From a virus: 46,842 nucleotides of DNA. Below the pieces are notes generated by a model that did not search any database, was not told the origin of the DNA, and saw nothing but the letters and a program-made list of their open reading frames with translations. The translations under genes and the position numbers were made by a program. Every line of letters begins with the position of its first letter. The first letter of the stretch is position 1. The DNA lies in IMG/VR virus record IMGVR_UViG_3300028871_000005. The stretch is one strand, 5' to 3'. Shown here in pieces: positions 13,304-26,459 of the stretch.

Positions 13304-13672
13304 ATGGAAAATTTCCTTCTGGGACTCATCTCAGGAATCCTTTTGATGGCTATGAAGGAAATTCCAGCTATCGCACTGAGCAAGCCGAGAGCGTTCGAAG
13401 AACTGGTTCTCTTGAGCCAAAAAGCCCTGTTCTTCGGAGCTTTTATATTTGCAGTCGCCAGCATCTGGAATCTGATAAATCCAGACTCGGAGCGCTTGCT
13501 TCTTTGGTACGAGATAGGTTGCTTTTTCGTGCTCTTGCACGCGATCCCAAGATGGATCGGGGAGATCGCGATCAAAGTGAGCAAACGCGATACCGACCAA
13601 GGCAACGCTCAGAGCGCCAGCAAGAAAGCCGCGTTCAAACCCTACAAGCCACGTTTCTCTCGTCGGAAGTGA
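13304..13672 (+). CDS. Three-TM membrane protein, antisense to the cro operon (candidate moron)
   Basis: MENFLLGLISGILLMAM...ALFFGAFIFAVASIWNLI...LLLWYEIGCFFVLLHAIPRWI followed by a basic tail. By hand count, third-position GC is about 61% versus about 50% for the competing minus ORF, and codon position 1 is more purine-rich. Confidence 0.5.
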   Translation: MENFLLGLISGILLMAMKEIPAIALSKPRAFEELVLLSQKALFFGAFIFAVASIWNLINPDSERLLLWYEIGCFFVLLHAIPRWIGEIAIKVSKRDTDQGNAQSASKKAAFKPYKPRFSRRK

Positions 13673-13674
13673 CA

Positions 13675-13905
13675 TCAGGCAGCCTGCCGCTTGGCTTTCG
13701 GGGCTGGGCCGAATACGTCGGGGCGCAAGTCGTAGCGTGTGACAGCGCCAGAGGTGAGTGTCTCGATCGCTATGCAGCGTTCGGCGGGCACTCGCTTGCG
13801 CTTACGCCATTCGGCTATAGATGGAGATTTAACGCCAAGCAGTTCAGCCAGCCTCTGCTGAGTGCCGACTTTCTCAATTACGGTATCAAGCGGGTTAGTG
13901 GTCAT
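13675..13905 (-). CDS. cro: Cro-like / YdaS-family HTH regulator
   Basis: GTQQRLAELLGVKSPSIAEWRKRKRVPAERCIAIE is an HTH. It is the first gene of the minus-strand early operon and is divergent from the repressor. Confidence 0.75.
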   Translation of the reverse strand: MTTNPLDTVIEKVGTQQRLAELLGVKSPSIAEWRKRKRVPAERCIAIETLTSGAVTRYDLRPDVFGPAPKAKRQAA

Positions 13906-13912
13906 GGACCAG

Positions 13913-13941
13913 ATATTAGGATGATCCTAATAACTAGTCAA
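13913..13941 (-). promoter_or_regulatory. PR-like promoter for cro: TTGACT-17 bp-TAATAT
   Basis: On the minus strand the -35 is at 13941-13936 and the -10 at 13918-13913. Only 7 nt separate the -10 from the cro ATG, and no SD is visible, so the mRNA may be leaderless. Confidence 0.6.
13915..13931. promoter_or_regulatory. Operator, perfect 17-bp palindrome ATTAGGATGATCCTAAT
   Basis: Read directly. It overlaps the spacer and -10 of the cro promoter. Confidence 0.7.
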
Positions 13942-13972
13942 CAGGGCAAACCTAACTCTATTCCGGTCAATA

Positions 13973-13989
13973 TTTAGGCCATGCCTAAG
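13973..13989. promoter_or_regulatory. Operator variant TTTAGGCCATGCCTAAG, overlapping the repressor start codon
   Basis: It has the same half-site spacing (N5) with one mismatch per half-site. It spans the ATG at 13981. Confidence 0.45.
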
Positions 13990-14496
13990 AAGATTCGCGA
14001 TGACACAGCCGACGCATTTGGCAAGCGGCTTTCAAAACTCTTGTTAGAAAAAAACCATCCGCGTCGCGGTGCTGGCTCATATCTAGCGAAACGTTACGGA
14101 TATGCCACCGTCACAGCGAACGCATGGCTAAACGGCGAATATCGTCCCGAAACGGAGTTAGCCAGAAGAATTGCTGAAGATCACGGATCGACGTTCGACG
14201 AACTTTATTTTGGAGCGAACCCGTCCATGAAAAACATCGCTGACGACCCGGAAAGTGAAATCGCGGCCCTAAGGGGTCGTGTTGATCACCTTTCCCTGGC
14301 ACTTTCCGCTTTGTTAAAGATCAGCGCCGAGCACCGGCCCTTGGAATACCAGAAGCTTGTCGAGGTGATGGGAACGCAATTACCTGACATGTCTTCAAAT
14401 GAGCCGCTTCGGGAAGCGCTGGAGTTTTTGAGCAATGGAAAGAATCGAGACACAACGCCATCTGCGTCGGCGCGCGTAAAAGCCCGAAAGCAGTAA
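13981..14496 (+). CDS. Repressor-like XRE-family HTH protein (CI analog, no obvious S24 peptidase domain)
   Basis: FGKRLSKLLLEK...YLAKRYGYATVTANAWLNGEYRPETELARRIAEDHGSTFDELYFG is an HTH_3-like segment. It is divergent from cro. No SD is visible upstream. Confidence 0.7.
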   Translation: MPKKIRDDTADAFGKRLSKLLLEKNHPRRGAGSYLAKRYGYATVTANAWLNGEYRPETELARRIAEDHGSTFDELYFGANPSMKNIADDPESEIAALRGRVDHLSLALSALLKISAEHRPLEYQKLVEVMGTQLPDMSSNEPLREALEFLSNGKNRDTTPSASARVKARKQ

Positions 14497-14651
14497 GGTA
14501 CTTCTGGAACAGTTCGTCGTACTGGTCAGTCATCATCGTCTCTCCTGTTGGCTCCATGAGACACCTTGCGTGTCCTCAGCGGTGAGACTCGCTTGATATA
14601 GCCATTCTTTCAGCATCACTTGAGAAAATACTGTAACTACCGGAGAACGGA

Positions 14652-14972
14652 ATGGCTAAGAAACTACAAGGAATTTCTTCTTTGATCGTAGTCGCTTGGG
14701 TAGCAAGCGCCAGTGCGCAGAACATGCCCGCCGCCTCGGTGGCGCATCAAAACCCGTGTGCATGGCCAGAAGTCCAGTCACAGCTCATGACCATGTACAA
14801 CGCCACGCCTCAATTGGTCGCTGATCATGGCAAGGTCACCAAGTTCTCTCACATGCAAACAACCTACGTAAACCTGCAGAACAATGATCTGCAGTGCGAA
14901 GGGGAATTCACCTATGCAGATGGGGTTACCAAAAAATCGGGCATCGGTATGCCTGTGAAACTTGGGCGCTGA
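14652..14972 (+). CDS. Secreted small protein (signal peptide, two Cys)
   Basis: MAKKLQGISSLIVVAWVASASA|QN is a signal peptide. GGAG lies 8 nt upstream. It sits downstream of the repressor. Confidence 0.65.
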   Translation: MAKKLQGISSLIVVAWVASASAQNMPAASVAHQNPCAWPEVQSQLMTMYNATPQLVADHGKVTKFSHMQTTYVNLQNNDLQCEGEFTYADGVTKKSGIGMPVKLGR

Positions 14973-15047
14973 GCAATGGATCGGAAGCTGGGAGGATTAA
15001 ACCGTGGTTAACGTATTTGACAAAACGGACTGCTATAGTGCTGACCT

Positions 15048-15266
15048 ATGAGCGCACAACTGAAGCCCTTATCGTTTGCCGACGCCTTTGGAAGTCTGCT
15101 GGACTTCTCTCATACGCCGCTGTCGAGCAAGCTTCCCGCCATGCCTACGCACGAGTTTGGCGTACAACGCCACTTCACGACCGTGGGAAACCGCATGAAG
15201 CGCGCCATGTCGGTAGCGGCTCATGAGCAAGCGCTCAAGCAAAAAGCGCCAAATCGCTCTAAGTAA
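15048..15266 (+). CDS. Small hypothetical protein (72 aa)
   Basis: ORF with about 65% third-position GC by hand count. It overlaps the annotated start of the next ORF by 44 nt. Confidence 0.4.
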   Translation: MSAQLKPLSFADAFGSLLDFSHTPLSSKLPAMPTHEFGVQRHFTTVGNRMKRAMSVAAHEQALKQKAPNRSK

Positions 15267-15702
15267 GAGCCGACCTCAAGCCCTTCATCCCAAGCCAATT
15301 CCTCACACCGAGGGATCGGTAGCTATGCATGTGGCGACGAAAGAAAGTTATAGCGGGCCGCTCCCCCATCCAGATCATCTTGAACGGTTCGAACACCTCC
15401 ATCCTGGAATTACGGGACGAATCGTGGCGATGATGGAAAAGGAGCAGGCTGACAGTAATGCTACGGTTGCCAAACAGCTGTCATTACACGAAAAAGTGAT
15501 TGACTGCACCGCCAAGGACAATCAGCGCATGCATTACGTGGCCCTTGCTGCGCTCGCCTTTTGCCTTATCGCCTCCGTTGCGCTCGCATACCTTCAGGCT
15601 TACAAGGCAGCCGGCATAGTTGGAGGAATAACCGTTGTCGGCGTTGTGGGATCTTTCCTGAGAAGCCAATTCAAGGGCGGAGACAGTAAAGAGCAAGAAT
15701 AA
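15223..15702 (+). CDS. DUF2335-like membrane protein (alternative start at 15325)
   Basis: YSGPLPHPDHLERFEHLHPGITGRIVAMMEKEQ is the DUF2335 signature. Two C-terminal TM segments follow. The upstream 34 codons look weakly coding. Confidence 0.6.
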   Translation: MSKRSSKKRQIALSKSRPQALHPKPIPHTEGSVAMHVATKESYSGPLPHPDHLERFEHLHPGITGRIVAMMEKEQADSNATVAKQLSLHEKVIDCTAKDNQRMHYVALAALAFCLIASVALAYLQAYKAAGIVGGITVVGVVGSFLRSQFKGGDSKEQE

Positions 15703-15726
15703 GCCGCCAAACACAACTGACCAACG

Positions 15727-15750
15727 AGCCCGCCATGAGCGGGCTTTTTT
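15727..15750 (+). terminator. Rho-independent terminator ending the repressor-side cassette
   Basis: AGCCCGC-CATGA-GCGGGCT followed by a T-run; T45-T50 are six consecutive T residues. Confidence 0.8.
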
Positions 15751-15767
15751 ACGTCTGCATGAAACTA

Positions 15768-15811
15768 ATTAGGATTGACCTATTGACATGATATTAGGCC
15801 TATCCTAATCT
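15768..15811 (+). promoter_or_regulatory. PL-like early promoter TTGACA-17 bp-TAATCT with two operators
   Basis: -35 at 15783-15788 and -10 at 15806-15811. Operators are ATTAGGATTGACCTATT (15768-15784) and ATTAGGCCTATCCTAAT (15793-15809), with the same architecture as the cro promoter. Confidence 0.65.
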
Positions 15812-15852
15812 CTCTCCATCGGCCACCAAACGGAGGCCAAGCCGGAAGGGAG

Positions 15853-16656
<804 letters not shown>

Positions 16657-25115: not shown

Positions 25116-25127
25116 AGGCTTATGTAT

Positions 25128-25139
25128 TGGCGGAGAGAG
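25128..25139 (-). other. Candidate attP core: 12 nt matching the reverse complement of a tRNA-Ser 3' end (CTCTCTCCGCCA)
   Basis: TGGCGGAGAGAG lies between alpA and int. From memory, this is the 3' acceptor end plus CCA of tRNA-Ser (for example E. coli serU). On the same strand the hairpin lies 12 nt downstream. Confidence 0.35.
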
Positions 25140-25283
25140 CGTCCGCGAGCCGCGCATATTGCACCATTCGCCCAAAGCAAGCAAGCCTTGCTGCATCAAC
25201 GTTTCTATGGGTTTTGTTTTCCGCTACTGTTCGCCAATGTAAGTGGCAATCAGGGTGTAAAACATGGGTGGGAATGTGGGTCG

Positions 25284-26459
25284 ATGGCCCGGGCGCTGAA
25301 TCGCTTGTCGGCGCGTCGCGTGGCGACTGTGGCCGAACCTGGATATTACGCGGATGGTGGAGGCTTGTATCTACAGGTGACGGCCACGCTGTCTAAGTCG
25401 TGGATCTTCCGATTCACTCGAGCTGGAAAGACTCGAGATATGGGACTGGGTGCATTGCACACCGTCAGCCTTGTTGAAGCTCGAGCCGCGGCGTTGCTTG
25501 CACGCAAAGCAAAGCTCGAGGGTATCGACCCGCTCGAGGCGAGGAAGGCAGCTAACGCGACCCGGGCTTCGATCCCAACATTCGCCGAGGCAGCGCTCGA
25601 GTACATCGCCAGTCAGCGAAAGTCATGGACGAATCCGAAGCACGCCGCCCAGTGGCAATCGACGCTCGAACTTTACGCATTCCCGTTCATCGGATCAAAG
25701 CCGGTTGACGCGATCGACACAGCTGACGTTCTCGAGATACTTCGGCCTGTGTGGGAGACCAAGACGGAGACGGCGACTCGAGTAAGGCAGCGTGTAGAGG
25801 CGGTGCTTGATGCCCAGTATGCCCAGCGGCATTGGGATAGGCAGAACCCGGCACGATGGCGTGGTCACCTCGCCAAGCTGCTACCGAAGCCCTCAAGCGT
25901 GCGCGCGGTGCGCCACTTTCCTGCAATGCCCTATCTCGAGATGCCTGCATTCATGGCGACGCTGCGCGCTGACACGGCTATCTCCGCCCGAGCGCTCGAG
26001 TTCCTTATCCTCACAGCCTCGCGCACGAACATGGTCAGCAAAGCGCGCTGGCTCGAGATTGCCGGCGACACTTGGACCATACCGAAAGAGCGCATGAAGG
26101 CGAAGCGTGTTCACCCTGTCCCGCTGACGGACGCAGCAATAGCCGTGCTCGAGCGGACCCCACGATTGCGCGGAGGTCTTTTCATCTTCCCGGGGGACCG
26201 TGGCCTGAAAGCCCATATGTCGAACGCCGCCATGGACAAGCTGCTCGAGCGCATTGGCTTCGCACGCTTCACCGTGCACGGCTTCCGCTCAACGTTTAAG
26301 GATTGGGCGACCGAACGAACCGACTTCCCCAACGAGGTCAGCGAGTCGGCGCTGGCGCATGTGGTCAAGGACAAAACCGAAGCCGCTTACCGCCGAGGCG
26401 ACTTGCTCGAGAAGCGACGCCAGCTGATGCAGGCCTGGGCTGATTACCTCACCCCCTGA
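25284..26459 (+). CDS. int: Tyrosine integrase, P4-like (DUF4102-type N-terminus)
   Basis: N-terminal LSARRVATVAEPGYYADGGGLYLQV. Catalytic residues are in ASRTN, HGFRSTF, LAH and AAYRRGD. Start at MARALNRL. The track's longer N-terminus looks non-coding. Confidence 0.9.
   Translation: MARALNRLSARRVATVAEPGYYADGGGLYLQVTATLSKSWIFRFTRAGKTRDMGLGALHTVSLVEARAAALLARKAKLEGIDPLEARKAANATRASIPTFAEAALEYIASQRKSWTNPKHAAQWQSTLELYAFPFIGSKPVDAIDTADVLEILRPVWETKTETATRVRQRVEAVLDAQYAQRHWDRQNPARWRGHLAKLLPKPSSVRAVRHFPAMPYLEMPAFMATLRADTAISARALEFLILTASRTNMVSKARWLEIAGDTWTIPKERMKAKRVHPVPLTDAAIAVLERTPRLRGGLFIFPGDRGLKAHMSNAAMDKLLERIGFARFTVHGFRSTFKDWATERTDFPNEVSESALAHVVKDKTEAAYRRGDLLEKRRQLMQAWADYLTP

Follow-up and report, generated by a model that had tools for sequence, protein, structure and literature searches.

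Analysis of a 46,842-nucleotide stretch of viral DNA (IMG/VR record IMGVR_UViG_3300028871_000005; hereafter, the window) revealed that the block of three co-oriented genes directly downstream of its repressor gene (14497-15750) is apparently composed of two stacked, independently acquired units. Unit A (14497-14975) carries a single open reading frame, ORF1, for a predicted exported protein, and unit B (about 14980-15750) carries a small gene, ORF2, that overlaps the gene of a DUF2335 membrane protein, ORF3. The window itself is a complete temperate phage of 46.8 kb, with an integrase gene (25122-26459) and portal, terminase, baseplate and SLT-domain genes. An earlier note on this DNA had treated the three genes as one module, a view that the comparisons below do not uphold. 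On balance, we favor the reading that the block is accessory cargo of a temperate-phage immunity region, made up of two units, expressed in the lysogen and acting at the cell envelope, with exclusion as its most likely role.

The division of the block is based on the following features of related loci: (i) DNA homology between the window and the contigs L017/L018 and L043, which carry relatives of the ORF2-ORF3 pair, begins at about 14980, just past the ORF1 stop codon (14972), (ii) similarity to L016, the contig with the only non-identical relative of ORF1, reaches upstream of ORF1 to the end of that contig, which corresponds to the repressor stop codon, and (iii) ORF1 is absent beside every other copy of the pair examined. 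In L017/L018 a different ORF precedes the pair, and in L041 and L043 the gene upstream of it is of the repressor type. No ORF2 homolog follows the ORF1 relative within the ~140 bp available in L016.

ORF3 (15223-15702, plus strand) encodes a predicted inner-membrane protein of 159 amino acids (aa) that matches the DUF2335 family PF10097 at 36.7 bits (gathering cut-off 25; E 3.8e-9; residues 48-76 of the 159-aa form) and phrog_3996 at 2e-21 over residues 33-157; the latter is placed in the PHROG category 'moron, auxiliary metabolic gene and host takeover'. At E<=0.001, 1408 representative clusters were counted for this large family. Gene callers start ORF3 at 15325 or later, giving forms of 125 and 90 aa. 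These starts were rejected because the N-terminal basic motif M-x-K/R-R-x-x-K-K-x-Q-I-A-x-S-K is common to the close homologs and to the frame that opens at 15223, and the true ORF3 therefore has 159 residues and overlaps ORF2 by 44 nucleotides (nt). Of the earlier description of the three ORFs, their standing as genes and the DUF2335-like ORF3 with two C-terminal transmembrane (TM) helices hold, and the optional start at 15325 is lost. The AlphaFold2 (AF2) model of ORF3, built from 76 sequences, has a predicted local distance difference test score (pLDDT) of 87 and shows a short N-terminal helix, an extended and highly conserved GPLPHPDHL segment, and helices at residues 63-123 and 127-158. 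Together with hydropathy, it describes a 60-residue helix ending as TM1 (102-127), followed by TM2 (128-147) and a charged tail. Since both the N-terminus and the tail are basic, the positive-inside rule places both ends in the cytoplasm, and ORF3 should be a membrane hairpin of two helices.

ORF2 (15048-15266, plus strand) encodes a basic (pI 10.6), predicted soluble protein of 72 aa that bears the C-terminal motif HFTTVGNRMKRAM and lacks a Shine-Dalgarno sequence. Its family has no Pfam entry and is split in PHROGs among small, scattered families of unknown function. A profile search of genome contigs with ORF2 gave no matches, nor did ORF1, ORF2 and ORF3 as direct queries against viral contigs. 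The closest homologs of ORF3 are always accompanied by an ORF of 71-77 aa at the position of ORF2, which overlaps the DUF2335 gene by 40-59 nt; in L017/L018, L019, L020, L041/L042 and L043 these ORFs are 38-65% identical to ORF2. A chance origin of ORF2 was rejected on the grounds of these homologs in the same overlapping position and of its motif in distant loci.

The distant loci are 17 genome loci (338,710 residues in six-frame translation) with DUF2335 genes that share only about 30% identity with ORF3. Alpha- and gammaproteobacteria, Acidobacteriota and further phyla are represented, Spirochaetales and Abditibacterium by one locus each from a metagenome-assembled genome so labelled. When these loci were searched with a weak ORF2 profile, the ORF immediately in front of the DUF2335 gene came up repeatedly, and the small ORFs share the motif W/F-x-x-V/I-G-x-x-L/M-x-x-A-M near the C-terminus and (A/S)F-x-x-(G/L)-x-x-D further up. 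A strict form of the first motif, W..[VI]G..[LMI]..[AGSV][MLITV], was matched 16 times; all matches but one (15/16) fall in the ORF immediately upstream of a DUF2335 gene, and 15 of the 17 loci have one there. By these comparisons, ORF2 and ORF3 form a fixed pair, linked across large evolutionary distances.

Acinetobacter phage TCUAN1, Lacticaseibacillus phage P2.4 and Lactococcus phage proPhi6 have the same layout, with the small gene adjoining or overlapping that of the DUF2335 protein, and the small proteins of at least two of the three (TCUAN1 and P2.4) carry the motif. The pair stands at the end of the late region of proPhi6, directly after the annotated holin and lysin genes, and closes a same-strand gene string at the record end of P2.4, again at the end of the late region; in TCUAN1 its neighbors are an Arc-like gene and an anti-repressor gene. 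A tRNA-Pro gene precedes the pair in L037, and a tRNA-Ser gene is located 470 nt beyond it in L017. These are classic cargo positions. A few copies were found on plasmids. Unit B thus appears to belong to a widespread fixed pair of prophages, a few plasmids, and the bacterial chromosomes of several phyla.

Within the subfamily of the window, the pair was found next to other repressors. In L041, it lies directly downstream of, and co-oriented with, a gene for a protein matching HTH_3, HTH_31 and Phage_CI_repr, with a divergent helix-turn-helix (HTH) gene nearby; this repressor-type protein has no similarity to the repressor of the window. In L043, the pair lies directly behind a co-oriented fragment that matches Peptidase_S24 (E 1.2e-4, just under the gathering score), a C-terminal domain type absent from the window repressor. 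The pair therefore recurs behind three unrelated repressors (window, L041, L043) within one subfamily. Co-occurrence of the cassette with other repressors, which the earlier note had proposed to look for, is seen for ORF2-ORF3, which ORF1 does not accompany there.

The immunity region of the window has the order cro-like gene, operator, repressor, three co-oriented ORFs, strong terminator, and operator-covered early promoter. The cro/YdaS-like HTH gene (13675-13905, minus strand; PF15943 2.2e-24; PF14549 (P22_Cro) 4.4e-10; phrog_35) leads the leftward early operon. The 17-bp palindromic operator ATTAGGATNATCCTAAT has only three sites in 46.8 kb, with 0.05 expected by chance. One of them (13915-13931, a perfect palindrome with no mismatches) covers the cro promoter, TTGACT-17-TAATAT on the minus strand, and the other two (15768-15784 and 15793-15809, plus strand) match the palindrome and cover the rightward early promoter (TTGACA at 15783-15788, 17 nt, TAATCT at 15806-15811). 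Between these outward-facing promoters lie the repressor gene (13981-14496, plus strand; 171 aa; CI-type N-terminal HTH, HTH_3 9e-4), a spacer of 155 bp (14497-14651) and the three ORFs. No copy of the operator occurs inside the block, and no terminator-like site occurs on the plus strand from the repressor to 15726, where the intrinsic terminator that ends the block begins (15726-15746 plus a T-run to 15752, plus strand; 8-bp stem with 6 GC pairs). The GC content is 0.49-0.54 across 13.2-16.2 kb and about 0.58 in the rest of the phage. The gene order, the sole terminator and the AT-richness given in the earlier note were all confirmed, as was its comparison to the rexAB slot of lambda, given the two flanking operator-controlled promoters and the two other repressors that the pair follows. 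Placing a terminator before an operator-covered promoter would be useful if transcription crosses the block at times when that promoter is closed, i.e., in the lysogen, and the block is thus probably expressed there.

Unit B may in addition have a promoter of its own. Alignment of seven sequences, the window and six related loci, revealed an invariant arrangement upstream of ORF2, namely TTAAC, 21 nt, TA(T/C/A)AGT, 7-8 nt, and ATG, which is represented in the window by TTAAC (15008-15012), TATAGT (15034-15039) and 8 nt before the ATG (promoter-like region 15008-15047, plus strand). The context of TTAAC is GTTAAC in four of the seven and CTTAAC in three. The upstream DNA of the seven otherwise differs, save for a stretch of ~65-80 nt common to the window, L017/L018 and L043, and none of them has a Shine-Dalgarno sequence. 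This architecture fits a private promoter that would yield a leaderless or near-leaderless mRNA.

Unit A is far less common. ORF1 (14652-14972, plus strand; GGAG 7 nt before the ATG) encodes a 106-aa protein with a predicted signal peptide ending in ASA, cleaved before QN, and with two cysteines (Cys36 and Cys82); no hydrophobic segments were found in it beyond the signal peptide. Among 5.8 billion proteins it has one non-identical relative, P0006, at 71% identity. Since P0006 keeps the cleavage motif and both cysteines, and many of the differences lie at third codon positions, ORF1 is a real, though very rare, gene for a predicted exported protein. It has no match in Pfam, PHROG, PADLOC or NCBIfam, a PDB sequence-profile search gave chance-level matches only, and its structural model is poor (pLDDT 58). 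A minus-strand ORF (14321-14557) begins in the spacer before ORF1 and has a counterpart in L016 (2-43, minus strand). Its first 14 codons (14495-14536) are conserved at the protein level beside P0006, MTDQYDELFQKYLT versus MRDRLDELFHEFLI, with synonymous changes, and from there it continues, in the window, in antisense across the final 175 nt of the repressor gene. This ORF may be either a remnant of a gene that moved with ORF1 or a genuine overlapping gene. A perfect hairpin, GGCATCGGTATGCC (14939-14952), lies within the 3' end of ORF1 and is followed by a T-run on the minus strand, so that it resembles a terminator against antisense transcription from the right.

The slot behind the repressor holds other genes in related phages. 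Residues 1-80 of the window repressor are 49-69% identical to proteins divergently flanking cro homologs in eight viral contigs (L001-L008). These contigs share the cro-repressor pair, and their slot is filled by other small, mostly membrane-type or lipoprotein-like genes: a protein with a zinc ribbon and a membrane helix in four (in one of which an Lcl_C protein is an extra slot gene), a lipoprotein in two, and a membrane protein together with a lipoprotein in one. A recurrent small slot protein without a Pfam family is encoded in L003 (4692-5057), L004 (4632-5057), L005 (4632-4937) and L007 (4733-4939); it has a CxxC motif, a membrane helix with T-N-H-x-L-H-L-x-L and A-G-x-W-x-x-V-W, and a second CxxC motif, and appears to be another unstudied cargo family of the same slot. 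The repressors of the relatives have ~240 aa, and the one tested (L003) matches Peptidase_S24 at 1.9e-19. The C-terminal 90 residues of the window repressor are unrelated to those of the relatives and lack Peptidase_S24; thus, its induction probably does not proceed through RecA-stimulated self-cleavage. The L001 repressor is also short (173 aa), with another different C-terminus.

The same phage DNA was assembled in at least 24 peat metagenome runs and occurs in 105 indexed blocks of the contig collection. Assemblies of the phage, L009-L015 among them, are 100% identical across 13600-16000, and contigs from four peat DNA runs that were compared are identical, with no variants or joints. Circularly permuted contigs of 46,842-46,872 bp were obtained, and the phage is also embedded within contigs of 83 kb and 144 kb; hence both circular and integrated forms exist. 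This is a single clonal temperate phage that is common in peat. No DNA similarity to the window was found among 50,697 phage records.

Searches for function returned no named system. In PADLOC-DB v2, no match was significant: only LeoBC (E 0.0033) and CARF (0.035) were hit, over the helical and membrane part of ORF3, and nothing was hit by ORF1 or ORF2. NCBIfam gave no match for the block proteins. The ORF3 model has no named structural neighbor in PDB or BFVD, its PDB sequence-profile matches are at chance level, and the Atlas search returned unnamed clusters only. Prediction of an ORF2-ORF3 complex scored 0.00 at both 1:1 and 2:2 stoichiometry, a score that the tool itself rates as no evidence either way. 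The statement of the earlier note that none of the products resembles a nameable defence protein therefore stands, and the profile and structure searches it had suggested for each product gave no named match for ORF1 or ORF3. A literature search found no paper on the function of the pair or of its DUF2335 protein. The name DUF2335 does occur in papers on secreted effectors, whose Tle1-type lipase domain we take to be DUF2235 and not DUF2335. There it is used for a phospholipase of type VI and type IV secretion systems (T6SS/T4SS) or for a Tle1 effector domain (10.1101/2023.07.16.549128, PMC6267618, PMC13600407). Text searches for DUF2335 would accordingly yield misleading functional hints.

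In the favored reading, the block would be transcribed in the lysogen by read-through from the repressor promoter, from the own promoter of unit B as a near-leaderless mRNA, or from both, and the terminator would stop these transcripts from running on into the repressed early operon. ORF1 would be exported to the periplasm, and the products would act at the cell envelope to the benefit of the lysogen. Their most likely role would be to prevent or abort infection by other phages, the membrane protein ORF3 being under the control of ORF2; this assignment is a guess drawn from position and analogy rather than from homology.

Several observations weigh against this reading. Many copies of the pair lie amid ordinary-looking chromosomal genes, with no phage genes seen nearby by eye (the MutS-, SdhB- and DeoD-like neighbors were judged from N-terminal sequences only, with no family search), and a role outside phages is therefore possible. 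There is no significant PADLOC match and no match to a named solved or viral structure. Across the block, all assemblies show 100% identity, so that selection is not measurable within this phage. Finally, the distance from TTAAC to the -10-like box exceeds that of a standard sigma-70 promoter by 3 bp; because of this non-standard spacing, the promoter reading is not secure, and TTAAC may be a regulator site or part of another promoter class.

Comparison with known systems revealed likenesses to several of them. As in the lambda cI-rexA-rexB region, the block is downstream of and co-oriented with the repressor, lies between operator-controlled early promoters and ends before an early promoter; unit B likewise consists of two genes, with one predicted soluble and one predicted inner-membrane product. 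In lambda, a second promoter lies inside the rex unit, RexB has four membrane helices and RexA has 279 aa, whereas ORF3 has two helices and ORF2 has 72 aa. No homology to RexA or RexB was found among the Pfam (E<=0.1), PHROG or PADLOC matches of the block proteins. Lambdoid morons, such as HK97 gene 15 for an inner-membrane superinfection-exclusion protein, resemble the block in being add-ons with a promoter-like front and a terminator behind, with a membrane product, a composition deviating from that of neighboring genes, and relatives (here L001-L008) that lack them. Unlike HK97 gene 15, unit B has two overlapping genes, its promoter is putative, and it shows no homology to gp15/YebO. ORF3 agrees with DUF2335 (PF10097) and with PHROG 3996, annotated as 'membrane protein', in its score above the gathering cut-off and its two C-terminal helices after a helical region, but these entries cover the membrane protein only and not its obligatory small upstream partner. 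T4 Imm is a small two-helix inner-membrane protein and T4 Sp is a periplasmic protein with a signal peptide; ORF3 and ORF1 would be of the same respective types, although they have no homology to Imm and Sp and are unlinked in other genomes.

For the pair taken separately, our guess is a membrane-acting conflict module, either of the exclusion or abortive-infection type or of the toxin-antitoxin type. A tentative, more specific proposal is that it is a new and very widespread membrane-acting anti-phage system, functionally analogous to RexAB and unrelated to it in sequence, in which the small protein silences the ORF3-type protein until infection; upon infection, the DUF2335 protein would block DNA entry or collapse the membrane potential. 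It is rather unlikely, in our estimate, that the pair is an addiction module of the toxin-antitoxin type, with ORF3 as a membrane-damaging toxin restrained by ORF2, which would stabilize the prophage and give protection from phages as a by-product. The overlap of 40-59 nt between the small first gene and the larger second gene, and the occurrence of the pair as stand-alone two-gene islets in chromosomes, as well as in prophages and on a few plasmids, are compatible with such a layout, and the conserved sequence upstream of ORF2 could be a site of autoregulation. Against this, the Pfam and NCBIfam scans revealed no recognizable toxin or antitoxin domain, ORF2 has no DNA-binding domain, and the complex prediction, uninformative as its score is, gave no interface.

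Joint action of all three genes, as one operon under the repressor promoter comparable to T4 Imm (membrane) and Sp (periplasmic) in superinfection exclusion, is improbable. The genes are co-oriented, with no terminator between them and one terminator closing the block, and one predicted product is periplasmic and one is in the membrane; but ORF1 is missing next to the other copies of the pair, its only relative is not followed by ORF2 in the sequence available, and the pair's region of homology opens immediately after the ORF1 stop. Least probable is a role of the pair in the lytic cycle rather than in the lysogen, either as a holin with a regulator of lysis timing or in genome entry or exit at the membrane: the late-region positions in the two phages of lactic acid bacteria, behind holin and lysin genes in proPhi6, and the two membrane helices and charged C-terminal tail of ORF3, as in class II holins, speak for it, but neither operator-controlled early operon includes the pair, which a terminator sets apart from them, many chromosomal copies have no phage genes seen nearby, and no holin family was matched in Pfam or PHROG.

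The points that are new here are the composite nature of the block, the corrected start of ORF3, the conserved architecture upstream of the pair, and the three unrelated repressor contexts within one subfamily. Annotation of the family needs correction, as gene callers start ORF3 at the wrong position (90 or 125 aa versus 159 aa) and often miss ORF2. The pair is small, self-contained and easily cloned. The genes adjacent to repressors of temperate phages are a rich source of exclusion and defence functions, and the window shows that there is room in this slot for two separately mobile units, one behind the other. For the pair, which spans several bacterial phyla and their phages, it provides an example from peat soil with three independent repressor contexts.

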